From contig CAISET010000002.1 in NCBI GenBank assembly GCA_903884505.1, positions 277,917 through 341,916 on the forward strand: 64,000 bases of DNA, in the 5' to 3' direction. Position 1 is the stretch's first letter; each line of letters opens with the position of its first letter. This DNA is from an uncultured Candidatus Micrarchaeota archaeon (GTDB lineage Archaea; Micrarchaeota; Micrarchaeia; Burarchaeales; Fermentimicrarchaeaceae). Both the position numbers and the translations under genes were made by a program. The notes beneath the pieces were generated by a model. The model saw only the letters and a program-made list of their open reading frames with translations, ran no database searches and was not told the origin of the DNA. Shown piece after piece: positions 1,710 to 55,632 of the stretch.

Positions 1710-3137
1710 TTATGCTACTTCCGAGCTCCTTCCCGACTCCTTCTTTACCCCGTAGTCGCTCATCCCCGCCTTCCACCAGGAATCGTACCTGTCGCGCACC
1801 TGGTCCTCGATGCTGCGCGACTTCCTCACCGCGTACTCCATGTGCTTGGCAGTGATCTCCTTCGCATCCTCAATCACTGCCATGTCACCGGCTAGCTTCA
1901 GCATCCCGGCAATGTCACGGAACCGCAGGGTGAGCGCGTCGCCCTTCCCGTCAATCATCTTCGCCTTAGCCTTTGCATCCCTAATGATGATCTCAAGCGC
2001 CCCGCGGTCGGCATGCGGTATCTTGCCGTCCTTGACAATCTCCTGCGCTACAAACTGCGCGAGCTTCACCCTGTTCTCATCCGTGTCCGGCATCGTCGTG
2101 TTGAGCAGCACCTCATACCCGTCCCCGAGAATCCTCGAGCGCAGGGCAGGCAAAATTGAGCCCAGGTCATTCGTGTTCAAGGCCCCTGCAAGTATGAAAT
2201 CGCAAGGCACGCCATCAACGCGCACGGACGCGCCAGTGCTCGTCGCATTCCTGCCGACAATCGGGAACCTCTTCTCCTGCATCGCGGTGAATATGAACCT
2301 CTGGAGATAGCCGAGAGTGGAAAGCTCGTCTACGAAAAGAACGCCCTGGTGCGCCTCATGAATGGCTCCGGGGACAACCCGCTGGTAAGGCGCTATTCCC
2401 GCCTCGGGGTGCCCGCCATAAGGGTCGTGCCTCACATCGCCAAGAAGCTCGGTCTCGCTCGCCCCAGTCACCTGCACGAAAGTGTTCCTGCTCAGGGGCA
2501 CAATCACCTTGCGCGGCCTGTGCTTCCTCATTCCCTCGAGCTCGCGCACCTCCTTCTCGCTGAGCACGCGCACACTGTACCCATCCGCGCGCTCGTACGC
2601 GACCGCCTCCTCCCTTCCGCCAACCGTCCTGGTTGTGCGGACGCGCTCATCCCTCTTCTCGCCGGAAGCGGAGAGCACCAAATCATCGAAAGGCGATGAA
2701 GCCCCGCGGTACTTGTCAGCGCCGCAGGTCGGGCAGACGACGGCCGATGAGGCGCTTATGCTCCCGCACCTCCTGCACCTGTAGCCCAGCCTTTCGGCGG
2801 CAATGACCGGAATATCGCGCACATCAACGAGCTTCCCAAGGCCCCTCTCGTGCCTCATGTCGCTCTTAATTTTGTCAGCCTCCCTCACCTCAACAATCGG
2901 CCTCTCAGGGTTTTCGGGGTTGTGGAGCACGGAGATTTCCTGCGTGGGCTTGGGAAGAAGAAAGGCAATCGCCTGCGCAATCATTGACTTGCCGGTCCCG
3001 GGAGGCCCAACAAGGAGAAGGTGCCTTCTCTGCGCAGCGGCTATGCGCGCCATGCGCACAGCCTCCTCCTGGCCTATCACCATGTCTAAGGGATTGGTGG
3101 GAATCTTCACATCCCTCGTGCTGTCCGGGAGGCGCAT
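1710..3137 (-). CDS. LonB-like AAA+ ATPase lacking transmembrane and protease domains, with an inserted C4 zinc ribbon
   Basis: VIGQEEAVRMARIAAAQRRHLLLVGPPGTGKSM Walker A and the VRHDPYGG...GVLFVDELSTL sensor region match the archaeal LonB ATPase module. It carries CRRCGSIS...CPTCG in place of the membrane insert, and has no S16 domain (475 aa). Confidence 0.6.
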   Translation of the reverse strand: MRLPDSTRDVKIPTNPLDMVIGQEEAVRMARIAAAQRRHLLLVGPPGTGKSMIAQAIAFLLPKPTQEISVLHNPENPERPIVEVREADKIKSDMRHERGLGKLVDVRDIPVIAAERLGYRCRRCGSISASSAVVCPTCGADKYRGASSPFDDLVLSASGEKRDERVRTTRTVGGREEAVAYERADGYSVRVLSEKEVRELEGMRKHRPRKVIVPLSRNTFVQVTGASETELLGDVRHDPYGGHPEAGIAPYQRVVPGAIHEAHQGVLFVDELSTLGYLQRFIFTAMQEKRFPIVGRNATSTGASVRVDGVPCDFILAGALNTNDLGSILPALRSRILGDGYEVLLNTTMPDTDENRVKLAQFVAQEIVKDGKIPHADRGALEIIIRDAKAKAKMIDGKGDALTLRFRDIAGMLKLAGDMAVIEDAKEITAKHMEYAVRKSRSIEDQVRDRYDSWWKAGMSDYGVKKESGRSSEVA

Positions 3138-3170
3138 GGAGGACTATTGGCAGCGCAGATTATTATGTCT

Positions 3171-4451
3171 TCACGATGCCTTCGTTGCGATGCCCATCCC
3201 AGTCGGCCTCTTGAAGATGTTGCCCATCTTCACGCCCACGAGGATTTTCACTCCCTTCCCGTCAGCAAGGTCCACGAGCCTCTGCGTGATTATCCCGTCA
3301 AGGACAACCGCGTGAATCCCGCTTCCCTCCTGCAGCGCCCTGATCAAATCGCGCACAGGCATCTCGCTCTTCAGGCCGAGCGACCCATCGTAAAGCCTTG
3401 CCCTCAGCGTGTTCTCCAGTTCGGCAAGGCTCTTCATGAGCCCCTCAGGCACCTGTACCTGTTCAACGGGGGCGGCAGGCGCCTGGGCAGCAGCTGCCTG
3501 CGCCGCTGCAGCAGCAGCGGCCTGCGCATGCAGTGCCTCCTCTCCAGGAAGCTGCAGCGGGACAGCCTTCACCCTCTTCTCAGGGAGCGGCTCCCCGCTC
3601 TCCGTCTTCGGCTTAGGCAGCCCCTCAATCTGCTCCGCAGGCACGCGTGCCCTCAGGCACTTGATTATCTCCTTGCGCGTCAGCTCCTCGACCTCCTTTC
3701 CGCGAGGCGCCCTTGCAACATAGTCTATCTCGCAGGCGTTTGCAATCTCGCGCAGGATGATGTCGCCTCCCCTGTCCCCGTCAAGGAACACGGTGGTCTC
3801 CTTCGCCCTGCACAGTGCCGCAAGCGTCCTCGGCACATTCGCGCCGCCAACCGCCACACTGTTGTTCACGTCGTTCTTCAGCAGGTTCAGGACATCTGCG
3901 CGGCCCTCGACTATTATCACCGAGTCGAAGCCGTCAATCTTTGGCCCTGACGGCAGCCTCTCAGGCCCGTATTCCGAAATCTCGGCAATCTTGACCTCCT
4001 GCCTGACGAGCTCGGAAATCTCCCTGCTCTCAGGAATCTCGGTCGTGAGCAGGTTCTTGAGCAGGCACTTCGCCCTGTCAACCACCTGCTTCCTCTTCAC
4101 GTTGCGCGTGTCCTCTATCTTCTCAACGCCGATCCTCGCATCGCAAGGGCCGACACGGTCGACAGTCTCCAGCGCAGCAGCGAGAATGGAAGTCTCAACC
4201 ATGTCAAGGGAGCTCGGGAGCATAATCTTGCCTATGCTCTTCCCTCCCCTCACCTGCAAATCGACCTCAATCCTCCCGATCCTGCCGTTCTTCTGCAGCT
4301 CGCGCAGGTCGAGCTCGTCGCCAAGCAATCCTTCGGTCTGGCCGAATATGGCGCCCACAACATCGGGCTTCTCCACCATTCCGCCGATCTCAAGGTTAGC
4401 GTAAACGACGTACTTCACTGTGTCAATATACGTTTTTCCCATATTTTTCAC
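3171..4451 (-). CDS. dnaG: archaeal DnaG-like primase (Toprim domain; exosome-associated DnaG)
   Basis: The N-terminus MGKTYIDTVKYVVYANLEIGGMVEKPDVVGAIFGQTEGLLG is the archaeal DnaG signature. Toprim acidic residues are present. Confidence 0.85.
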   Translation of the reverse strand: MKNMGKTYIDTVKYVVYANLEIGGMVEKPDVVGAIFGQTEGLLGDELDLRELQKNGRIGRIEVDLQVRGGKSIGKIMLPSSLDMVETSILAAALETVDRVGPCDARIGVEKIEDTRNVKRKQVVDRAKCLLKNLLTTEIPESREISELVRQEVKIAEISEYGPERLPSGPKIDGFDSVIIVEGRADVLNLLKNDVNNSVAVGGANVPRTLAALCRAKETTVFLDGDRGGDIILREIANACEIDYVARAPRGKEVEELTRKEIIKCLRARVPAEQIEGLPKPKTESGEPLPEKRVKAVPLQLPGEEALHAQAAAAAAAQAAAAQAPAAPVEQVQVPEGLMKSLAELENTLRARLYDGSLGLKSEMPVRDLIRALQEGSGIHAVVLDGIITQRLVDLADGKGVKILVGVKMGNIFKRPTGMGIATKAS

Positions 4452-4861
4452 CTTTCATACCTCTCCATTTTCTCTCTCAGCTCCGCGACCTTCCTGTCCA
4501 GCTCCTCAAAGAACCGGACGCCGAAAAGGGCGCGCAGCTTCCTGCGGGAATCCAGGTCAGGCCTCACGCAATGCGCCTCAAGCGCCCCAGCCATCCTCTT
4601 CGCCAGCTCCTCGCCGGCATCATCGAAGTCCGTCATCACCGCAGCAATCTCCGCCCTTGCGGCGACCTTCGCGGCGATGTCATCCGGCTTCTGGTTTATC
4701 AGCGTGATGCGGTTGGCGACCCCGACTCTCAGGAGTGCCTCCCTGTCCCTTTTTCCCTCAACGAGAACCTCGGCGCCGGACTCCTCCAGCTCCATCATGA
4801 GGCTCCCGAATCTCTTCCATTTCTGCCGGAGGAGGTGACCCTCGCGGGATTCCGCGAGCAT
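4448..4861 (-). CDS. small stand-alone Toprim-domain protein (COG1658-like small primase-like protein)
   Basis: Toprim motifs VLVEGKRD and VMTDFDDAGE. Overlaps the dnaG start by 4 nt (translational coupling). Confidence 0.55.
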   Translation of the reverse strand: MLAESREGHLLRQKWKRFGSLMMELEESGAEVLVEGKRDREALLRVGVANRITLINQKPDDIAAKVAARAEIAAVMTDFDDAGEELAKRMAGALEAHCVRPDLDSRRKLRALFGVRFFEELDRKVAELREKMERYER

Positions 4862-5218
4862 TCAGACCCCTCCCGGCTTCGCCTCCCCTATTCGCCTTCG
4901 GGCGAATGGGGCGCATTTCGCGGAGCGAAATCGCGCCGGCGAAATGTCCGCACCTTCCGGTGCGGATAGCCTCCGCTTGATTTCCTCGAGCGGAAGTCCT
5001 ACCCTAAGCAGCTTCCTCCTGTCCCTTCCTCCCCGGACAAGCTCGACGGGCGCCCCGAGAATCTTCGAGAGCTCCCGCACAAGTTCAGCGTTCGCCCGCC
5101 CCTGCTCCGGCTTCTCGGTCAGGCTGACCTTGAGCCTTCCGCTCTTTTGGTCCCAGCCTGCCGCGAACTCCCTCGAGCCCGGGCGGACCGACGCTTCCAA
5201 TTCCGTCATATTCTTCAT
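4862..5218 (-). CDS. DUF167/YggU family protein (UPF0235)
   Basis: GRANAELVRELSKILGAPVELVRGGRDRRKLLRV matches the DUF167 core. Abuts the Toprim ORF. Confidence 0.55.
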   Translation of the reverse strand: MKNMTELEASVRPGSREFAAGWDQKSGRLKVSLTEKPEQGRANAELVRELSKILGAPVELVRGGRDRRKLLRVGLPLEEIKRRLSAPEGADISPARFRSAKCAPFARRRIGEAKPGGV

Positions 5219-5407
5219 GAAAGGATGAGCAGAAACCTGCTGCTCGGATAATCATGTGCTCTGCGATGTTGACTGTCGTTCATCGCCTGTCTAACTCCCG
5301 TGGCCATCCTCGCAGAGCACTATATTTGCCCCAGGAGCGGTATTTAAACCTGTGGCTCCGACGTGATCGTATTTATCCGGCAGTCCAATTTCTACATTTA
5401 AGCAATA

Positions 5408-6736
5408 TTAGAGGGCTTTGTCCTGCAAGCATCTCTCTTTGTCCAAAACAAATACGAATTGTTTACCTCTCGACAACTTATGTAAATAACCCCTTTCTGT
5501 TAAGTCAAAAAGATCAGTTCTTGCCGTTTGATAAGTAGTATTATACCGTTCCTTCATCTCATAAATGGTTATTGATTGTTCACTTTTACTCAAACTGATA
5601 ATTAAATCAGCTTGGCGGAAATTCATTTTTGGATTTCGGCGTATTGTTTCAAAGATTCTTTTATTCTCTTCTTTAGTTTTTTCTATATACTTTTCGAATG
5701 AAGTTATTGCAATATCCATTGCGTGCAGATTAAATTTTACAAAGTACGTAACGTCATTATTGTCCGTTTCAGCATATAAATAGGCGCGAGTATACTGCGC
5801 AGGGGCATTATTAATTGCAGTAGATATGGCAACGTATTCCAAATAATCATAATTTTGTGCCAAAAGATACCAATAGAACAGCGCCCTTGCAGTCCGGCCA
5901 TTGCCGTCAAAGAACGGGTGTATCCAACCAATCATATAATGAAGCACCATAGCCTTTACAAACGGATGAAGGTAGTACTCAGTAGACTCGCCATTAACGA
6001 AATTGCAGACCTGTTCCAAAAGCTGGTCAATCTGGCTGTATTCGGGAGGATCGTAAATGATCTGCTGTCTGCCGTCTCTAGAAAAGACCTTAATGTCGTT
6101 TGTTGTCCTGAACGCCCCCTCATATTTCTTATCGTCGAGCGTATCATTTGTGATTCGCTTATGGATTTCTCGAATTAAATCAAATGTCAATTTCTGGTTA
6201 GATTCTACATGCTCCTTGATGTACCTCATAGTAATATAGTTGTTGAGTATCATTTGTTCTGAGCGAGTCCGCGGTTTTCTATTTTCTCTCAGCATTTTTT
6301 TTGCAACCAATCTGGATGTAGATGCACCTTCCAATTGACTCGAAGCTATTGCTTCTTCCATTAATGAGTTTACTAAATATTTTTTTTGTAATTCAACCCC
6401 CATTTTAGCTTCTAAGTCTTTTTCGATTTTCCCAGCTACGCGCATGTCCAGTTCATGAAGTGTTTTTTCAATATTTGGGGTCTGTATATACCGTAGTCTC
6501 AGGCCATTGATGCCAATGGTTCGCGAATCAAAACTTCTAGAGAATTCGATAAATGTCCACAACTTCTTAAGGTCAATGTCCTTGAATTGGTCATTTATTT
6601 TCAATTCATCCCAGTGTAAGTACTCGCTATTGGCGGCATTCAGATACGGCCTAAGTTTGTCAAAGTCCTCGCGTCTCAGCTTTTCGATATGTAGCCCAAC
6701 CGGTGGTTTTTCGGGAATCCTCATAGCAGCACCCAC
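5408..6736 (-). CDS. Fic/DOC family protein (AMPylation-type Fic domain with an in-cis inhibitory motif)
   Basis: Canonical Fic motif HPFFDGNGRTARAL. An SSQLEG inhibitory-helix-like motif lies upstream. The gene sits in an AT-rich island. The ORF-table start is GTG at 6736, with an alternative ATG at 6724. Confidence 0.8.
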   Translation of the reverse strand: MGAAMRIPEKPPVGLHIEKLRREDFDKLRPYLNAANSEYLHWDELKINDQFKDIDLKKLWTFIEFSRSFDSRTIGINGLRLRYIQTPNIEKTLHELDMRVAGKIEKDLEAKMGVELQKKYLVNSLMEEAIASSQLEGASTSRLVAKKMLRENRKPRTRSEQMILNNYITMRYIKEHVESNQKLTFDLIREIHKRITNDTLDDKKYEGAFRTTNDIKVFSRDGRQQIIYDPPEYSQIDQLLEQVCNFVNGESTEYYLHPFVKAMVLHYMIGWIHPFFDGNGRTARALFYWYLLAQNYDYLEYVAISTAINNAPAQYTRAYLYAETDNNDVTYFVKFNLHAMDIAITSFEKYIEKTKEENKRIFETIRRNPKMNFRQADLIISLSKSEQSITIYEMKERYNTTYQTARTDLFDLTERGYLHKLSRGKQFVFVLDKERCLQDKAL

Positions 6737-6777
6737 ATACTAATGTCACCTCTATTAGTACACATTCCCATTTATTA

Positions 6778-6880
6778 ATCTATGTACTAATTATAAACTC
6801 ATTAGTACTCATTAGTATATTGTTGGGTTCGAATGGATCAATCTATGTACTAATTATAAACTCATTAGTATTCATTAGTA
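6778..6880. repeat. tandem direct repeat: 40-bp unit (atctatgtactaattataaactcattagta[c/t]tcattagta) x2 at 6778-6817 and 6841-6880, separated by a 23-bp spacer
   Basis: Seen directly in the sequence, with internal ctcattagta sub-repeats. It lies at the right edge of the low-GC Fic island. The spacer contains gggttcgaat, which resembles a tRNA T-arm. Confidence 0.8.
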
Positions 6881-6892
6881 CGAGCTAACGGT

Positions 6893-10235: not shown

Positions 10236-12479
10236 ATGTCGTACTCCTGGCTTCTCTTCAACCCATCACCGCTTTCCTTTTGGGGGCAAGCGTTTAATGG
10301 GTTTCGCACCCAACTATACCTTGTGGCAGAAAAGGAGCTCGAGCTGAAAGTGAAGGAGGCCCTCCAGAGCGACGTAGGGAGGGGCATCGCAAGGATAGAC
10401 AGCGCGAACATGGATAAGCTCGGGGTCGAGACTGGCGACGTGCTCGAGGTCGAGGGGCAGGACGGGAAGAAGGCAGCCGCCCTCGCCTGGCGCGCAAGGG
10501 CGGAGGACGAGGGGAAGGGGGCTGTCCGGCTCGACGGAATCCTCAGGCACAACAGTGGAATAAGCGTCGACGACATCGTGAAGGTCAGGAAGGCGGACGT
10601 GAAGCCCGCGAAAGAAGTCCACGTCGCGCCCACTCAGGAAATCTCGTTCAGGGAGGACTTCATCTCATATTTCCACGAGCGCATGCTGAACGCGCCGCTC
10701 ATCTCGGGCAACAGCATTGTTTTGGAGGTGATGGGCCGCGCGCTCGTCTTCACGGTCACGAACACGGCCCCGAAAGGAGTGGTGCAGGTAACTCCTGAAA
10801 CAAAGGTGAAAATTTCCACCAAGCCCATGAAAGCCGCGGCAGCCGTGGGCGTGAGATACGAGGACATCGGCGGCCTGAAGGAGGAGATAGAGTCCATCCG
10901 CGAAATGGTCGAAATCCCAATGAAGCACCCGGAGGTCTTCAAGCGGCTCGGAATCTCGCCGCCGAAGGGCGTGCTGCTCTTCGGCCCGCCCGGCTGCGGG
11001 AAAACATTGCTCGCAAAGGCAGTCGCCTCCGAGAGTGAGGCGCACTTCATCGCGCTCAACGGCCCGGAAATAATCTCGAAGTGGTACGGCGCATCGGAGG
11101 AGAACCTCAGGAAGATTTTCGACGATGCAAAGGAGCACGCGCCCACCATCATCTTCATGGACGAGATTGACGCAATCGCCTCGAAGAGGGAGGAAGCCGC
11201 GGGCGAAGTGGAGAGGCGCGTGGTCTCGCAGCTTCTTACATTGATGGACGGGCTTGAGGCAAGGGGCGACGTAATCGTAATCGCAGCCACAAACAGGCCC
11301 GATTCGATAGACCCTGCGCTGAGACGGCCAGGGAGGTTCGACCGTGAAGTGGAAATCCGCGTCCCGGACAAGGCCGCAAGAAAGGAAGTCCTCCAGATTC
11401 ACACGCGCGGAATGCCGCTCGACAAGGACGTGGACCTTGACGAATTCGTCGAGGTGACCTACGGCTTCACGGGTGCGGACGTCGCCGCGCTCGCGCGCGA
11501 GGCGGCCATGCGCTCCCTCAGGCGCGTCCTCCCGGACATAAAGCGCAGCGAGGAGGGGCTCAGCAAGGAGGTCCTCGGCAAGCTCGTGATAAGGAGGCAG
11601 GATTTCATAGACGCGCTCAAGAAGGTGGAGCCTTCCGCGATGCGCGAGGTGCGCGTGGAAGTCCCGCGGACAAGGTGGTCTGACATCGGCGGCCTCAACG
11701 CCGTGAAGGAGGAGCTTCGCGAGGCGGTCGAGTGGCCCATAAAATACCCGGACAGCTTCGCAAAGCTCGGCATCTCGCCGCCAAAGGGCATAGTCCTGAT
11801 CGGTCCGCCCGGCTGCGGCAAGACGCTTCTCGCCCGCGCAGCAGCAACCGAATCGCAGGCAAACTTCATCTCAATCAGCGGCCCCTCCATACTCTCCAAG
11901 TGGGTAGGGGAGAGCGAGAAGGCCATACGCGAAACGTTCAAGCGCGCGCGGCAGGTCGCCCCCTCCATCCTGTTCTTCGACGAGCTCGACTCCATCGCAG
12001 GCTTGAGGGGCGCGGGGGTTGGCGGCGGAGCCGAAGTCACGGAGCGCGTCGTGGACCAGCTCCTCGTTGAGCTTGACGGGCTGGAAGAATTGCACCAGGT
12101 TGTAGTAATCGCAGCGACCAACCGGCCCGACCTCGTCGACCCCGGGCTGCTCAGGCCGGGGAGGTTCGACAAGCTGGTCTACGTCCCTATGCCGGACAAG
12201 GAGGGAAGGAGGCAGATTTTCGGAGTCTGCACGAAGAAGATGCCCCTCGCCTCCGATGTCAAGCTCGAACAGCTCATCGACAAAACCGACGGCTACAGCG
12301 GCGCGGACATCGCGGCCGTCTGCAAGGAGGCGGGGCTTTTCGCCCTGCGCGAAAGCAAAACAGCCAAGGAAGTGGGCATGAAGCATTTCGAGCATTCCCT
12401 CGCAAAGGTGCGGCCCAGCCTGACGCCGGACGATGCGAAGGCGTGGGAGGAACTGAGGGCGAAGTTCGTGCGCGCCTGA
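10236..12479 (+). CDS. cdc48: CDC48/VCP-like AAA+ ATPase (two AAA domains)
   Basis: An N-domain ([19 protein letters not shown]) precedes two Walker A motifs (GPPGCGKT, twice) with DEID/DELD Walker B motifs. The true start may be the GTG at about 10323. Confidence 0.92.
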
Positions 12480-34149: not shown

Positions 34150-35352
34150 CAGGTCGAAAATCTTCTTCGCAATCCCGCTCTTCCTTTCGGCAAATTTCGC
34201 TCCGTCACCGTTCTTTCTCAGGATTAGCACCTCATTCGTCTCCGTCCCGAACCCGGCCCCTTTTCTTGAAACATCATTCGCAACAATCAAATCAGCGCCA
34301 CACTTCCTCATCTTCTCCAGAGCCCTCCGCTTCAGTTCAGCATCGCTTACCCCGCTCTCCGCCTTGAAAAGCACAAGCCCGGCCTTCCTGTTCCATTTTC
34401 TAACGGCATCCGAAATCTTCGGCGCAGGCAAAAGGGAGATGTTAGCGTTCTTCCTTCCCGAACTCATCTTCCCCTTCTCCTTCTTCGCAATGAAATCGCC
34501 AACTGCCGCCGCAAGGGCTATCACGGCAGCGCCTTTGGCCTCCTTCCTGGCCGCAGCGTGCATCTCCGATGCGCTTCCCGCGCGCACAACCTTCAGATAG
34601 CCCGGAACCGGCGCCTCCGTATGGCCGGCAATGAGCGTCACATCCGCCCCGCGCAGCCACGCTTCCCTTGCGAGCGCAATCCCCATCCTTCCGCTGCTAG
34701 GGTTCGAGATGAACCGCACGTCATCGATTGGCTCCCTCGTCGCGCCGGCGGTCACAAGCACCTTCTTCCCCTTCAGCGTCCCCTTCGCGAGCCTTCTTAT
34801 GCAGACATCAACAATCTCGCGGCTCTCAGCAATCTTCGCCTTCCCCTCTTCCATCCGCGGCATGATTACCTGCACGCCTTTCTTCTTCAGGCGGGCTATG
34901 TTCTCTGCGACAAACGGGTTCTCATAGATGCTCAGGTGCATGGCCGGCACAACCACAATCGGAATTTTCGCCCCGAGCGCGGTGCTTGCGCAGGTCGTTA
35001 CCGGCGTATCGTCAATTCCCCAGACCATCTTCCCAATCGTATTCGCGGTGCATGGCGCAATTAGAAGCAGGTCTGATTTCCCCGCAGTCCCGCACAGCGA
35101 AATATGCTCGCACTCGCCAGTGAGTTCCGTGACAACGGGATTGCCCGTGGACCAGTGCATCAGCTGCGGGCCTACAAGCCCCTGTGCTGCGCGGCTCATC
35201 ACGCAGAATACTTCGGCGCCATGGCGCATCAGCCCGCGCGCAAGCTCCGGTGAGTTCGCCGCGGCGACGCTGCCGGTGATGCAGAGGCATATCTTCTTTC
35301 CCGCAAGCTCAGAGCCGCTCGAGCCGATGATTGATGTCGAGCTGTGCATCAT
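34141..35352 (-). CDS. coaBC: bifunctional phosphopantothenoylcysteine decarboxylase / phosphopantothenate-cysteine ligase
   Basis: N-terminal flavoprotein domain (ICLCITGSVAA...PAMH) and C-terminal DFP ligase domain. Confidence 0.85.
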   Translation of the reverse strand: MMHSSTSIIGSSGSELAGKKICLCITGSVAAANSPELARGLMRHGAEVFCVMSRAAQGLVGPQLMHWSTGNPVVTELTGECEHISLCGTAGKSDLLLIAPCTANTIGKMVWGIDDTPVTTCASTALGAKIPIVVVPAMHLSIYENPFVAENIARLKKKGVQVIMPRMEEGKAKIAESREIVDVCIRRLAKGTLKGKKVLVTAGATREPIDDVRFISNPSSGRMGIALAREAWLRGADVTLIAGHTEAPVPGYLKVVRAGSASEMHAAARKEAKGAAVIALAAAVGDFIAKKEKGKMSSGRKNANISLLPAPKISDAVRKWNRKAGLVLFKAESGVSDAELKRRALEKMRKCGADLIVANDVSRKGAGFGTETNEVLILRKNGDGAKFAERKSGIAKKIFDLLE

Positions 35353-37169
35353 TTCCTGCGCCTCTTCGCAGCCACCCTGATTTTCTGCGCCGCCATCGCC
35401 CTTCCCTTCGATATCGCGCGCGTGTAAAGCACGATGCTCAATATCGCGGAGGTTACCAGGAGTATGCTGAGCAGCACTATCACAACGACCAGCGACTCGT
35501 TCAGCTTCTCGACGTTCTCCTGGGCCGGTATTGAGGCAGGCGTCGCTGAAGGCGCCGGGACCGCATTCGGGTTCTCGAATAGCACGAGCATCATCGTGGT
35601 GTCGTTCTCCATCCCATCGGCTATAGATCCGAGCCTAAGCACCGTGCCGGCGTCTCCGCCAGTCAGGTTGTAAAAGCTCGCATGCGCAAAGAAGAGCGCG
35701 GACCAGAGCGTCTTCCCCTTCCTCGCCAGGAACCCGCTTGCCTTCTGCGAGGCGGCGTTCTCCCCTTGGGCGCTATAGTTCGCCGCCCTGAGCGCGCCAA
35801 GCACGTAATCAGCATCATACACCGCGGCCCCGTACTCGCTCGCATTCAATGCCATCTCAGCGCTCGAGAAGTGGAACTGCAGGTCGCTGTCTTCCCCCTG
35901 CGGCCCTGCCATCGCCCCGCGCGCCTCGCCTACGCGTGCAAGCGCCAGGTTCCTGAGCGCCGCCTCATCCGCACCGCTTCCGCCCACTTCGGCAGCCGCG
36001 GAGTAAAGCTCCTTCGAAATCCCGCACCAGCTCTTCGCGAGCAGGGCGTCCTTGTAGAGCACGAGCACCTCCTCGCTGTCATTCACCGCAAGCTCCTGCT
36101 TCTTCACTTCCGCGAGCTTGTTTCTCGCCCATGTTGCGCGCAGGTCCGCCCCCACCCTGAACCCGAGGTTCTCCTTCGTTAATCTTCCGCGGTCAATCCC
36201 GTTTATGCAGCTTCCGACATCTGAAATAAGAAGCGCCAGGTCCTGCCTGTTCGGGCTGCCGTTCTTCACCACTTCCGCATTGATGCGGTTCAGGAAGGCC
36301 GTGTTCGCCGCAGTGTAGAAATACCCATTGGCCAGCATCTCCCCGCTGTCCGCAACATCCTCCCTAAGCAACGGCAGTACGGTTGCCGCCGCTATGCTGT
36401 TGCTTCTTGCCGCATCTTCGGTCTCGTTCGCAGAACTTTCCACCACCCCGCTAGCTATCTCCCCGAACCTCCCGACTCCGCAGCCCGGGCAATCGTAGGA
36501 GTAGGGCTGGAGATGCAGCGGCGCGGGCGTTTCCACGGGCAGCGGCTGCGGGTAAGTGCCCTCCGCAGCGAACGCTATATCCCTGACTTGGGTGATGTTG
36601 TCAACCTCGAATACGGTCACATTGAGCCTGCCCATCAGGCTCACGAGCGTTATCTTATCGAACGTGTCGCTTTCCCGCGGCAGCAGCACGAGTTTTATCC
36701 CGCCAGCAGAGGCCGCCTCGACCTTCTGGTATATGCCGCCAACCGCCCCCACCTTCCCGCCGTCCTCTATGGTTCCAGTTACCGTGAAATCCCCGCGCAG
36801 CGGCCTTCCCTCGAGCGCGGAAATTGTGAGCAGAGTCATCGCGGCTCCCGCGCTTGGGCCGTCAACCTGCCTCGTTTCCCCGACATCCATCGTCAGGAAA
36901 ACATCATAGTCGCTCTCATTCTTCCCGAGGACGGCCATCGCGTTCTCGACCGCCTTCCTTTCGGACTGCTGCGTGTCAATCCCAATCAGCGGGTTGGTCG
37001 AGGTGTATATGTTCCCGGTTCCATTCCTCACATCGACGGTAATAAGTATGAGCACCCCTCCGCCGTCCGTGACTACTGCAGGCACGCGCATGCTCGCATT
37101 AGCCGCGCTGGCCTGCAGCGACGCACAAATAAGCACAAAGGCAAGAACGATTATCGCATTCATCTTCAA
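35349..37169 (-). CDS. membrane-anchored extracytoplasmic Lon-like S16 serine peptidase
   Basis: Signal peptide. VDGPSAGAAMTLL...GGIYQKVEAASAGG (Ser-Lys dyad of the Lon proteolytic domain). C-terminal TM plus basic tail. No AAA module. Confidence 0.65.
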   Translation of the reverse strand: MKMNAIIVLAFVLICASLQASAANASMRVPAVVTDGGGVLILITVDVRNGTGNIYTSTNPLIGIDTQQSERKAVENAMAVLGKNESDYDVFLTMDVGETRQVDGPSAGAAMTLLTISALEGRPLRGDFTVTGTIEDGGKVGAVGGIYQKVEAASAGGIKLVLLPRESDTFDKITLVSLMGRLNVTVFEVDNITQVRDIAFAAEGTYPQPLPVETPAPLHLQPYSYDCPGCGVGRFGEIASGVVESSANETEDAARSNSIAAATVLPLLREDVADSGEMLANGYFYTAANTAFLNRINAEVVKNGSPNRQDLALLISDVGSCINGIDRGRLTKENLGFRVGADLRATWARNKLAEVKKQELAVNDSEEVLVLYKDALLAKSWCGISKELYSAAAEVGGSGADEAALRNLALARVGEARGAMAGPQGEDSDLQFHFSSAEMALNASEYGAAVYDADYVLGALRAANYSAQGENAASQKASGFLARKGKTLWSALFFAHASFYNLTGGDAGTVLRLGSIADGMENDTTMMLVLFENPNAVPAPSATPASIPAQENVEKLNESLVVVIVLLSILLVTSAILSIVLYTRAISKGRAMAAQKIRVAAKRRRK

Positions 37170-38399: not shown

Positions 38400-39179
38400 C
38401 TAACGGATATAGCTTAGCTCCTTGCCGGCGAAGCCCCCTTCCTGTATCTGCTTCTGCTTCTCGGTCTCCTTCTCCATCCTCTTCATGAACTTCTCGCTCT
38501 CCTTCGCCCTGATTTCAAGCTTGGAAAGGTCGATCTTCACCTCAAGTATCCTGGAGAGCACCTCGAGCACGCTCTGCGCGCTCTTCGCGTCAACATAGCC
38601 GCCGTGCGTCTCGCCCATCAGGCAAACACCCTTAATCCCCCTAAGCTTCCCCAGCCCGAGCAGCATGCCCGCAGCGCCGATGATCGAGCCACTAGCCTCC
38701 CCGAACAAAATTCCGTGCTTCTTCAGGCTCGTGACAACTTCCATCCTGGTCGCCGAGCCGAACACGCGGGGCTTCTCCACAACGCGGCCTACCCCGTAGC
38801 CCCCGAGCGTGAATATGAATTTTCCCCCGAGCTTCTGGTAGAAGTCCAGTATGGCCCCGCAGACCTCGAACTGCGCCTCGGGCGTCACAGCCTGCACGTC
38901 GCCAACCAGTATTACAATATCCCTTCCGCCCTTCTTCGGGTTCTTCCAGTAGTAGAACTTGTTCTTCAGCATCCGTATTATGCCCTTCTTGAGCATGAGG
39001 ACCTGGTGCGGAAAATGCGGAGAGTAGAGTTCGGCGAACTTCTCGGCCTTCAACTCCTTAATCATGTGGTCAGCAGCCAGCTTCCCAACCAATCCAATCC
39101 CGGGCAGGCCCTCAATGAGCACCGGGTCGTTCAGCTTCACCTTCTTCGAAACAATGAGCGTCTTGTCCATGCACATCAC
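38400..39179 (-). CDS. PAC2-family proteasome assembly chaperone-like protein (COG1938)
   Basis: LIEGLPGIGLVGKLAADHMI N-terminal motif. Conserved position next to nop10/eIF2alpha. Confidence 0.65.
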   Translation of the reverse strand: MMCMDKTLIVSKKVKLNDPVLIEGLPGIGLVGKLAADHMIKELKAEKFAELYSPHFPHQVLMLKKGIIRMLKNKFYYWKNPKKGGRDIVILVGDVQAVTPEAQFEVCGAILDFYQKLGGKFIFTLGGYGVGRVVEKPRVFGSATRMEVVTSLKKHGILFGEASGSIIGAAGMLLGLGKLRGIKGVCLMGETHGGYVDAKSAQSVLEVLSRILEVKIDLSKLEIRAKESEKFMKRMEKETEKQKQIQEGGFAGKELSYIR

Positions 39180-53093: not shown

Positions 53094-53558
53094 TTGATGC
53101 CACCAACTAAAATTAAAACTGGGCAGCCCAGCGTCATCCCTAAGCAGCCCGAAAAAACGGTTGGGTCGACTTTTAGGGAGAAGTTCGCGAAGCTCCTCCT
53201 TAATGATAAATCCAGCGAACTTGACTGGAAGACGAAGAAAAGGGCAACCAGGCTGCTCTCGGAAGAGAGAGCCGCGGAGAAACTGGCCAACCGCGAAACG
53301 GGCGAACGAAACAGGAGCATCGTCATAGCATCGGCTCTCACAGCGATGAGTGCAGCGCTCACATACGTAGCCACGTATACAACTGCCGGCACTGTGCTGA
53401 CGATTCCAACCGCAGGGGGGTGCCTCGTCATCGCCGGAGTGTTCGCAGCCTACGCCCTTTTCCGCCATAACCGCGTCCAAAAAGCTGCCAAACGCCTGGA
53501 GAAAGTGCGCAGCGAGCTCGACGGAATCATCCAAAAATCTACCAAGGAAGCGTCTTAA
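53094..53558 (+). CDS. hypothetical membrane protein
   Basis: Two C-terminal TM helices ([20 protein letters not shown]...[16 protein letters not shown]). Confidence 0.35.
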
Positions 53559-55632
53559 TCAGCTTGTCCCGCGCCTCGCCTTCCTTCATCGAGTTCTTGA
53601 TGACCTCCTCAATGTTGGAGACAGGAATAATCCTCACCTTCTTCCTCCTTTTCGCATCAATGTAGACGTCATCGATGTTCGCCTTCGGGATGAGGATAGT
53701 CTTGCATCCCAGCTCAATCGCGGCCTCGACCTTCGCCGTAACGCCCCCGACCGGAAGCACTTCTCCCCGAACTGAAAGTGAGCCAGTCATCGCAACCGAC
53801 TGGTCGACCGGGATGTTCTCCATTGCGGAGAGCACTGCGATTGCGGTGGATATCGATGCCGAGTCCCCTTCCACCCCTTCGTAGGTCTGCAGGAACTGAA
53901 TATGAATATCATAGCTTGAGACGTCCTTCCCCATGTGCTTCTTCACGATTGCGGAGACGTTCTCGACAGCCTCCTTCGCAATATCACCTAGCTTTCCGGT
54001 TGCAATCAGCTTCCCCTCGGACCTTGAGCTCGCAGGCGTGACCTCGGCCACAATCGGCAAAATAAGGCCGCTCGCGCCCTCCCCGAGCACCGCAAGCCCG
54101 TTCACCCTCCCGATTTTGAATCCCCTTGTAACGAACACGCTGTAATCCTTCTTCAAATCTATAATCTGCCTTGAAATCTGCTGCTCGAGCGGCGCAGCCA
54201 CCTCTCTGGCAGCAATCACGTGCTTCTCATCAACGAGCTTCGCCCCTTTCTCCTTCGCAATATCCCCGGCAGCTCTCACAAGGCCCCCGAGCTCCCTCAA
54301 CTTCAAGGTAAGCCTCTCCTTCCTCGCAGCCTTCCTCCTCGCCTCCTCTATTATAACATCAACTGCGCCTTTCGTGAAGTGCGGGATCTTCCCGTCCTTC
54401 TTCACCTCCTGCGCCACGAACTGCACCAGCTTCGCCTGGCTCTCAGCATTATCGGGGATGGAATCCTCCATGTAGACCTCGTACCCATACCCGCGGATTC
54501 TGCTCCTCAGCGCCGGGTGCATGTTCTGCATATCCAGAAGATTCCCGGCGGCCACAAGCACGAAATCGCAGGGCACGGGCTGAGTCTTCACCAGCGCGCC
54601 GGAGCTCATCTCGCTCTGCCCCGTGATCGAGAACTTCTTCTCCTGCATCGCACTCAGCAGATCCTGCTGCGACCTAGGGGTAAGGGAGGAAACTTCATCG
54701 ACAAACAGCACTCCCTTGTTCGCCCTGTGAATCGCCCCGCTCTCAACCCTCTGGTGCGCGGGCGTGCCAAGCCCCCCGGATTGAAGTGGATCGTGCCTCA
54801 CGTCGCCGAAAAGCGCCCCAGCTCGCGCTCCCGTGGCATCAACGAAAGGCGCGTTGCTCTTCCCGGTGTTATCCACTATGAGCTTCGGCTCAGCCGACTC
54901 AAACGGAGAAACCCTGCGCGAAAGCCCGGATGTGAGCATGAACGCAGCGGAAAATATGAACAGCCCAAGAATAGTTGCCGCAAAAATCCACCCGTTATTC
55001 CCCTGCCCGTAATCCGTGAATGAAAGGACGAGCAGCACCCCGACAGAAATCAGCAGGAACAGGATAGGCATCGAAATCCCCTTGCCTTTCATCCTCCCCT
55101 TCATCCTATCCTCCTCAATCAGAACCCTCCCATACCCGTTCATCGACTCAAATGGCGCCTTCTCCTTCGCATACTTCGCCTTCAGTTCAGGCGGGTACGT
55201 CTTCACGGCCTTAACGATAGGCTGGTTCTCATCGTTCGGGTTCGGATAAACAAGCACGTCCTCCAGGTCCTCGCCAGGCATAAGCTCAGCCATCGCCTGT
55301 GCGAGCATGGACTTCCCCGTCCCCGGCACGCCCATGAGCAAAACATTCCGCCTCTGCGCAGCCGCCTTTTTTATTATCCTAACTCCCCGCTCCTGCCCGA
55401 TAATCCAGTCAATCAGCTTCGCAGGCACGGGAATCTCGGCAGTGCTGTGGAAATGCATCTTCGGGGCCTCTTTCACAGCCGCCTTCGCCGCAGGCTTCGC
55501 CTTCATTGCATTCGGCTCCCTGTTCGCAACAGGTCCGGCCTTCGCTGCCCCCTTCTCCCCCTTCCTCACCTTCTTCTTCGCCATCGCAATTCTCTTACAG
55601 CGCGCCTTAATTACCTTGCCCTTTTCGGCCAC
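53539..55632 (-). CDS. lonB: archaeal membrane-bound ATP-dependent Lon protease LonB
   Basis: GVPGTGKSM Walker A. TM insert ([16 protein letters not shown]...[12 protein letters not shown]). S16 domain with GDSASIS (catalytic Ser) and a Lys dyad. Lys/Ala-rich N-terminal extension. Confidence 0.9.

Follow-up and report, generated by a model that had tools for sequence, protein, structure and literature searches.

A LonB-derived archaeal ATPase without a protease domain, encoded next to dnaG, is a candidate soluble protein unfoldase

Lon proteases are defined by the presence of an unfoldase and a protease on one polypeptide chain. The bacterial AAA+ unfoldase ClpX recognizes substrates and adaptors on its entry side by means of a C4 zinc domain, and docks onto a separate ClpP. 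Here we analyze a 475-amino-acid AAA+ ATPase encoded directly downstream of dnaG in a stretch of 64,000 nucleotides, called the window below, from an uncultured Candidatus Micrarchaeota archaeon (assembly GCA_903884505.1, contig CAISET010000002.1, positions 277,917-341,916, forward strand). An initial annotation of this DNA had described the protein as a LonB paralogue that lost its protease and exchanged its membrane hairpin for a zinc ribbon, and had proposed a non-proteolytic remodelling role for it in RNA or DNA metabolism. Our results bear out the description of the protein and place it in a conserved family of protease-less archaeal ATPases whose genes recur next to dnaG. They also point, tentatively, to a soluble protein unfoldase that would be functionally coupled to DnaG.

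The ATPase aligned with the LonB encoded in the same window at 37% identity over residues 6-447, which cover the whole AAA+ module and the lid, and its best solved relative was T. onnurineus LonB (PDB entry 3k1j, E value 5e-83). By comparison, the PDB chains of Mg-chelatase (ChlI), ComM, RuvB, MCM and Cdc6-like proteins all gave E values of 1e-4 or above, and the Pfam Mg_chelatase match was confined to residues 17-67, around Walker A. The fold agreed with the sequence. A Foldseek search with an AlphaFold2 model of the ATPase (mean predicted local distance difference test score, pLDDT, 84.5; predicted template modelling score, pTM, 0.75) retrieved 3k1j with an E value of 1.5e-34 and matched the LonB ATPase domain 4zpx with a target-normalised TM-score of 0.85. 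The runner-up was LonC (E value ~3e-12), with ComM, RuvBL, BchI and RuvB far behind. Scored against the LonB model TIGR00764, the ATPase reached 340.4 bits, under the cutoff of 516.6. These results confirm that the protein is a LonB paralogue and not a Mg-chelatase- or MCM-like ATPase.

The catalytic motifs expected of such a motor are all in place. Residues G44, P46, G47, G49, K50, D270, E271, N321, R333, R335, R405 and R407, together with H237-D238-P239-Y240-G241 of the pore loop, are invariant in 59 family members, in agreement with the earlier reading that the Walker A, Walker B and sensor motifs are retained. The pore loop of the ATPase aligns with HDP[F/L]QSGG of LonB (HDPFQSGG in T. onnurineus LonB), the phenylalanine of which is said, in work from 2010, to be an axial pore residue. 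The loop of the ATPase is also one of only two places where the pLDDT of the model falls below 50, the other being the last nine residues (467-475). We conclude that the ATPase keeps both the ATP-hydrolysis residues of LonB and its substrate-gripping pore loop.

The protease domain, on the other hand, is gone. No Lon_C match was found in the ATPase by a Pfam scan, and a tblastn search with the protease domain of LonB detected no remnant adjoining or downstream of the ATPase gene. Nor was a hydrophobic segment detected in the ATPase, in which no 19-residue window reached a Kyte-Doolittle value of 1.6 (maximum 1.15), whereas the LonB of the window has two such segments, at residues 183-209 and 213-238. 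The latter protein had been taken for the bona fide LonB, and Lon_C, the LonB lid and the membrane hairpin were indeed all found in it.

A sequence search with the ATPase returned more than 120 clusters at 54-81% identity, all of 448-499 amino acids, the named ones being from Micrarchaeota. The distribution of the family was then taken from a scan of one genome per species of the GTDB with two peptide patterns derived from the insert described below, which gave at least 573 confirmed relatives; all locus-level counts in this work refer to the best 80 loci of these. They come from Micrarchaeota, Thermoplasmata (including Cuniculiplasma), the DHVE2 group, Methanobacteria and Jordarchaeia, and cluster look-ups extend the family to Aciduliprofundum boonei, Thorarchaeota and Korarchaeota. 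At none of the 80 loci did a protease domain match in the corresponding open reading frame (ORF). Length, motifs and tail are maintained across hundreds of proteins, which rules out gene decay, whether by truncation or as a pseudogene, as the cause of the missing domain.

Sequences of this family predate the window gene: since the Thermoplasma genomes, databases have carried them under provisional names, 'Putative lon protease homolog' for T. acidophilum Q9HLX6 and T. volcanium P58275 and 'Protease La homolog type 2' for Picrophilus Q6L1E9. The ATPase fits the Q9HLX6-like family, the members of which have ~440-540 amino acids, CxxC-x9-10-CxxC in an insert between Walker A and Walker B, and no protease domain. 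No earlier description was found of the features that define the family, namely the lost protease, the insert with its zinc ribbon, a link to dnaG that spans phyla and the conserved docking-like tail. A published 'Lon-like' protease of M. smithii is another protein, of 77 kDa and with a protease domain. In a rough distance tree (neighbour-joining, no support values), the family formed a single clade, broadly along taxonomy, that a long branch sets off from LonB; within the family, the Micrarchaeota members formed one clade and those of Thermoplasmata, DHVE2 and Methanobacteria another. The single clade and the long branch point to an old duplication of LonB followed by mostly vertical descent. 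Three representatives deviate from the common plan. P0124 and P0129 (~442 amino acids) have a degenerate Walker B (ISDL/LPDL for DE) and have lost HDPYGG and the C-terminal tail, with the zinc ribbon intact, and may be inactive paralogues. P0121 (539 amino acids) is a LonB-like ATPase up to the lid, after which an apparent histidine-kinase-type ATP-binding domain follows; the join reflects a genuine fusion or else a chimeric assembly.

The second hallmark of the family is the domain that stands in place of the membrane hairpin. It is there that the alignment with LonB breaks, and CRRC-x10-CPTC lies in the gap, as expected if a C4 zinc ribbon has replaced the hairpin. Both CxxC pairs are present in 120 of 120 homologues. 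According to the model, the insert would run from a helix through a short strand, a second helix and the zinc ribbon to a poorly ordered linker, a three-stranded sheet and a long helix; no structural match to the ~125-residue insert was found. It is basic (median isoelectric point 9.3, net charge +7), with conserved basic and aromatic residues at Y119, R120, R122, R123, K142, Y143, F150 and Y181. When a profile of the insert alone was run against 1.84 billion representative proteins, 30 matches with E values of 1e-10 or less were obtained. All inspected matches with the family features had at most 540 amino acids and lacked a protease domain, and no canonical LonB (600-700 amino acids) matched the whole insert; longer proteins lower in the list were matched only through repeated short stretches. 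Since the insert is restricted to protease-less proteins, we regard it as a defining character of this lineage. In LonB, work on 3k1j reportedly has the hairpin projecting from the ring on the side away from the protease, which is the substrate-entry face and the usual site for recognition domains. By analogy, the zinc-ribbon insert should decorate the entry face of the ring.

Genomic context gave a hint of a function. Six-frame ORFs of the 80 loci were searched with the window proteins, and all neighbours were also clustered without prior assumptions. The commonest neighbour by far was dnaG, which in 32 of the 80 loci directly precedes the ATPase gene in the same orientation: at all 18 Thermoplasmata loci, at both DHVE2 and both Methanobacteria loci and at 10 of the 48 evaluable Micrarchaeota loci, four further Micrarchaeota loci having dnaG within 8 kb. 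The single Jordarchaeia locus did not show this arrangement (0/1), and on a short Korarchaeota contig no dnaG was seen. No neighbour other than dnaG was shared across phyla among the loci compared. In Thorarchaeota (L081 4061-8565, and L082), dnaG, OsmC, the LonB-like ATPase and Pelota follow each other on one strand. The adjacency is therefore not peculiar to this genome; it recurs in Micrarchaeota, Thermoplasmata, DHVE2 and Methanobacteria and, with one gene between, in Thorarchaeota. The Thorarchaeota order also ties the ATPase to an mRNA-surveillance or ribosome-rescue factor (Pelota) in an Asgard lineage.

At the Thermoplasmata and DHVE2 loci, candidate start codons of the ATPase overlap dnaG by 1 to 19 nucleotides, and in the T. 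acidophilum genome the called dnaG ends 19 nucleotides inside the ATPase gene. Overlap of genes usually means coupled translation, and the overlapping frames in Thermoplasmata argue for co-expression of the two genes rather than accidental order. The other genes of the window cluster are less widely linked. The small Toprim gene precedes dnaG at nine Micrarchaeota and two Methanobacteria loci only, and DUF167 is linked at four Micrarchaeota loci only. Of the two Toprim proteins to which coupling was suggested earlier, DnaG is thus linked by gene order across phyla, and the small Toprim protein in Micrarchaeota and Methanobacteria only. The pair of dnaG and the ATPase gene is conserved as a unit; the set of four genes is not. 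Neighbours found in single lineages were not used as functional evidence (DUF2070, NMD3-like, CxxCxxCC, HerA, AP-endonuclease-like, DUF5611, XerA-like, archease/RtcB, VWA/PP2C, cytidine deaminase and Pelota).

Taken together, these results are best explained if the ATPase, a soluble descendant of LonB, unfolds proteins in functional association with DnaG, its zinc ribbon recognizing a client or adaptor and its tail docking a partner. We hold this explanation tentatively and would not quite claim an even chance for it. As we picture it, a soluble hexameric AAA+ unfoldase/translocase, descended from an ancient LonB duplication, would use the zinc-ribbon insert on its entry face for substrate or adaptor recognition, and the insert may recognize proteins bound to nucleic acid. 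The bound polypeptide would be threaded by the ring through its pore. The preferred client or partner would be DnaG or a DnaG assembly (exosome cap or primase complex), to be disassembled, recycled or turned over, and the C-terminal tail on the exit face would dock a partner, for which the 20S proteasome is a candidate in lineages whose tail is of the [G/S]-Y-X type. DnaG of other archaea is exosome-associated, and in a Sulfolobus exosome study of 2003, Cdc48 and DnaG are said to co-purify with the exosome. A role of the ATPase in RNA or DNA metabolism is what we infer from its neighbourhood and its basic zinc-ribbon insert. The data themselves show how the family is built, how well it is conserved, where it occurs and to which gene it is linked, and the functions given here are deduced from that.

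Several points weigh against the DnaG-coupled unfoldase. The hexameric state of the ATPase is assumed from homology. An adjacent dnaG is missing from 38 of the 48 evaluable Micrarchaeota loci, from the Jordarchaeia locus and from the Korarchaeota contig, and gene adjacency alone is no proof of a physical or functional interaction. Nucleic acid would be as plausible a substrate as protein for an insert that is basic and carries a zinc ribbon. The window ATPase ends in SEVA and lacks the proteasome-docking HbYX motif (hydrophobic or small residue-Tyr-X); since it has no tyrosine there, proteasome docking is unsupported in this organism. Literature searches found no paper on the protease-less family.

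What the tail might dock can be considered from its sequence. After the lid it consists of a conserved segment (Table 1), a variable spacer and a conserved end. It takes the place of the LonB protease at the end of the chain, and disorder is predicted for it. In a set of 117 full-length proteins obtained with a Thermoplasmata query, the penultimate residue is tyrosine in 114 and phenylalanine in two (ends are, for example, GYQ, SYD, SYQ and GYR); T. acidophilum Q9HLX6 ends in SYE, and a penultimate tyrosine is also found at the Methanobacteria, DHVE2 and Jordarchaeia loci. This small residue-Tyr-X ending resembles HbYX. The tails of 118 Micrarchaeota proteins follow another rule, with E/D at position -3 in 106, V/I at -2 in 98 and A/G/S at -1 in 83. 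A conserved free C-terminus on a disordered exit-face tail would look, by analogy, like the docking tails of other unfoldases. The non-proteolytic role proposed for the ATPase at the outset does not follow from these data, since the extreme C-terminus is strongly conserved and, in the Thermoplasmata-query set, has the HbYX-like form [G/S]-Y-X, as would suit an unfoldase that docks to a peptidase on another chain.

The alternative that survives best, although we consider it unlikely, is that the ATPase is a further proteasome-activating ATPase that would unfold substrates and insert its tail into pockets of the 20S alpha ring in the manner of PAN, Cdc48 and AMA, with dnaG as the source of a preferred substrate or as an incidental neighbour. 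It overlaps with the DnaG-coupled unfoldase and draws on the near-universal penultimate tyrosine of the Thermoplasmata-query set and on the predicted disorder and position of the tail. A survey of proteasomal ATPases accepted a hydrophobic or small residue before the tyrosine of HbYX and counted a single proteasomal ATPase in Thermoplasmata, but it examined classical AAA proteins only (Forouzan et al. 2012). The residue preceding the tyrosine in the family is mostly G or S and not hydrophobic, the window protein and the 118 Micrarchaeota homologues end in E/D-V/I-small without tyrosine, and the dnaG linkage is left unexplained. We know of no proteasomal ATPase in the Lon/HslU/ClpX/RuvB clade.

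Within the window, a gene for a PAC2-family protein (proteasome assembly chaperone-like; 38400-39179, minus strand), which also speaks for a proteasomal ATPase, indicates that this organism probably has a proteasome system. The PAC2-family protein ends in SYIR and the Cdc48 homologue of the window (10236-12479, plus strand) in FVRA, neither of which is a canonical HbYX end with penultimate tyrosine; these ends raise the question of how, or whether, the proteasome of this organism is docked. A motif search for proteasome subunits in the window and the 80 loci yielded no alpha and only spurious beta subunits, from a sample too small to mean anything.

A bolder form of the docking idea would make the family a new class of Lon-derived archaeal unfoldases that dock by their tails onto a separate ring-shaped degradation machine (the 20S proteasome in the Thermoplasmata, Methanobacteria and Asgard members with [G/S]-Y-X), the zinc ribbon pulling DnaG or RNA- or DNA-bound proteins off nucleic acid. 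We regard this as rather improbable. If true, the proteasomal ATPases of Thermoplasma would number two instead of the one so far assumed, Cdc48/VAT, and protein unfolding would be linked physically to the DnaG/exosome machinery.

Equally doubtful in our estimation is a nucleic-acid motor or loader working with DnaG as primase. Archaeal DnaG has no template-binding zinc domain; the zinc ribbon would stand in for one in trans, and the ring would move along DNA or RNA as RuvB, of the same AAA+ clade, moves along DNA. The basic insert, with its conserved R-C-R-R-C knuckle and aromatic residues, would suit such a motor, as would the presence of two Toprim proteins in the cluster. RuvB, RuvBL and ComM are distant structural neighbours, and RuvBL has an insertion domain that is topologically equivalent to the insert of the family, lying likewise between Walker A and Walker B. 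Enzymes of DNA metabolism also occur nearby: a XerA-like tyrosine recombinase directly after the ATPase in Methanobacteria (L062 9222-10235 and L079 9262-10260, in the order small Toprim, dnaG, ATPase, recombinase), HerA downstream at four Micrarchaeota loci, and Hjc in the window. The pore loop argues the other way, being invariant with its surroundings and nearly identical to that of LonB, which translocates protein. Moreover, the matches to RuvB, ComM and MCM are weaker than those to LonB by many orders of magnitude, and the remaining downstream neighbours are RNA-related or unrelated (Pelota, archease-RtcB, HisRS).

That the ATPase is an accessory or regulatory subunit of membrane LonB, acting in mixed rings or in substrate delivery and standing beside dnaG without functional meaning, is very improbable. 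In its favour, the two paralogues coexist in the window and at locus L001 and are alike over the whole AAA+ module, and dnaG adjacency is lost at most Micrarchaeota loci; against it, the family has its own conserved insert and free C-terminus, no membrane segment and a long branch to LonB, and the frame overlap with dnaG across Thermoplasmata speaks for co-expression.

The positions of the genes and of the ATPase features are listed in Table 1.

Table 1. Genes of the window cluster, sequence elements of the ATPase and the LonB of the same window
Feature	Position	Strand	Description
Spacer 5' of the cluster	5219..5407	minus	189 nucleotides, AT-richer, GC content 0.487
TTTAAATA element	~5340-5347	minus	read by eye in the spacer before DUF167
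DUF167 / UPF0235 (YggU family) protein	4862..5218	minus	118 amino acids, first gene of the cluster
Stand-alone small Toprim protein, PRK04017-like	4448..4861	minus	137 amino acids
Archaeal DnaG (Toprim primase-like protein)	3171..4451	minus	426 amino acids
LonB-like AAA+ ATPase, soluble	1710..3137	minus	475 amino acids
Family-specific insertion domain	2495..2887	minus	ATPase residues ~84-214, ~125 amino acids, replaces the LonB hairpin
C-terminal tail	1710..1811	minus	ATPase residues ~443-475, IEEQ..RYGSWWKAG.SDYG segment, predicted disordered end
Walker A	ATPase residues 44-51
C4 zinc ribbon	ATPase residues 121-138		C121, C124, C135, C138
Pore loop	ATPase residues 237-242		HDPYGG
Walker B	ATPase residues 266-271
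Sensor-1	ATPase residue N321
Arginine-finger region	ATPase residues R333/R335
Sensor-2	ATPase residues R405/R407
Canonical membrane LonB protease	53539..55632	minus	697 amino acids: AAA+, LonB lid domain, two membrane helices, S16/Lon_C

As originally described, the cluster consists of four packed minus-strand genes; the ORF list showed 0 nucleotides between DUF167 and the small Toprim gene, a 4-nucleotide overlap of the latter with dnaG, and 33 nucleotides between dnaG and the ATPase gene. DnaG was identified by model NF003108 (499.2 bits against a cutoff of 300, residues 13-422) and by Toprim Pfam matches. The small Toprim protein shows EGKRD and DFDDAGE, the Toprim Glu and DxD motifs, in its translation. 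It matched PRK04017 models with an E value of 6e-16 but stayed under their cutoffs (best NF003090, 58.4 bits, cutoff 120), and matched the PDB Toprim protein 1t6t with an E value of 3e-5. DUF167 scored 54.9 bits with PF02594 (cutoff 30.9) and 51 with TIGR00251 (cutoff 35), and its PDB relatives are PF1765 (E value 5e-8) and MTH637 (1.5e-7). The nearest of these, PF1765 of P. furiosus (UPF0235), has its sequence in 10 PDB entries (9unt and 9vyq-9vyw among those listed), which suggests a recent series of ligands or complexes that might reveal a function; no paper on the function of PF1765 or UPF0235 turned up in the literature.

In the spacer before DUF167, the TTTAAATA element could be an archaeal TATA box, a candidate whose promoter function is only inferred. 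Beyond that spacer lies a gene for a Fic/DOC-family protein with a DeoR-like helix-turn-helix domain (442 amino acids, 5408-6736, minus strand), with a GC content of 38.8% against 58-64% in its neighbours and with AT-rich spacers on either side (5219-5407 and 6737-6892). In related Micrarchaeota loci, a CBS gene is followed directly by DUF167, the small Toprim gene and dnaG, and the Fic/DOC gene looks like a foreign insertion that splits this conserved block. At the start of the window, two neighbouring plus-strand ORFs in different frames, 18-410 and 467-892, may be a frameshifted or split gene or reflect a sequencing error: the second matches both domains of D-isomer 2-hydroxyacid dehydrogenase, and the first, by eye, resembles the N-terminal part of this enzyme. 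A third Lon-related gene of the window (35349-37169, minus strand) encodes 606 amino acids with an S16 (Lon_C) domain and a DGPSAG motif. As read from its sequence, the protein carries a signal-like segment at its N-terminus and a membrane anchor at its C-terminus and is probably extracytoplasmic; because of these apparent features it was set aside as an unlikely partner protease for a cytosolic ATPase.

Set against archaeal LonB (T. onnurineus 3k1j and 4zpx; TIGR00764), the ATPase has the same AAA+ module, lid, pore-loop motif and full set of ATPase residues. It differs at two places: LonB has a membrane hairpin where the ATPase has its ~125-residue basic zinc-ribbon domain, and an S16 protease domain where the ATPase has a ~30-residue tail with a conserved free end. 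The database entries Q9HLX6, P58275 and Q6L1E9 belong with the window ATPase in family, length class and zinc ribbon, and dnaG is adjacent in T. acidophilum; Thermoplasmata members group with the window ATPase against LonB in the tree, but end in [G/S]-Y-X instead of SEVA. The family is thus present in a model organism of proteasome research, Thermoplasma acidophilum, with its gene overlapping dnaG, and no study of it was found in the literature. This makes testable the cellular job and the regulation of archaeal DnaG, a second ATPase feeding the 20S proteasome in Thermoplasma, and the origin of free-standing ClpX-type unfoldases from fused AAA+ proteases.

The likeness to ClpX is an analogy from textbook knowledge. 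Both proteins belong to the same AAA+ clade, carry a C4 zinc domain and lack a covalent protease, but they share no sequence relationship past the AAA+ fold, the zinc domain of ClpX is N-terminal and not an internal insert, and ClpX docks via IGF loops rather than a C-terminal tail. PAN, Cdc48/VAT and AMA are, like the Thermoplasmata-query set, ring unfoldases with a flexible C-terminal tail and a penultimate tyrosine; they belong to the classical AAA clade, whereas members of the family have mostly G or S before the tyrosine and the window ATPase has no tyrosine at all. LonC of Meiothermus and Thermus is, like the family, a Lon derivative in which the two activities have been uncoupled, but in the opposite direction, LonC having kept the protease and lost ATPase activity and the family having kept the ATPase and lost the protease. 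The family is the clean reverse of LonC, with the motor conserved, the protease gone and the membrane anchor swapped for a zinc-ribbon domain.

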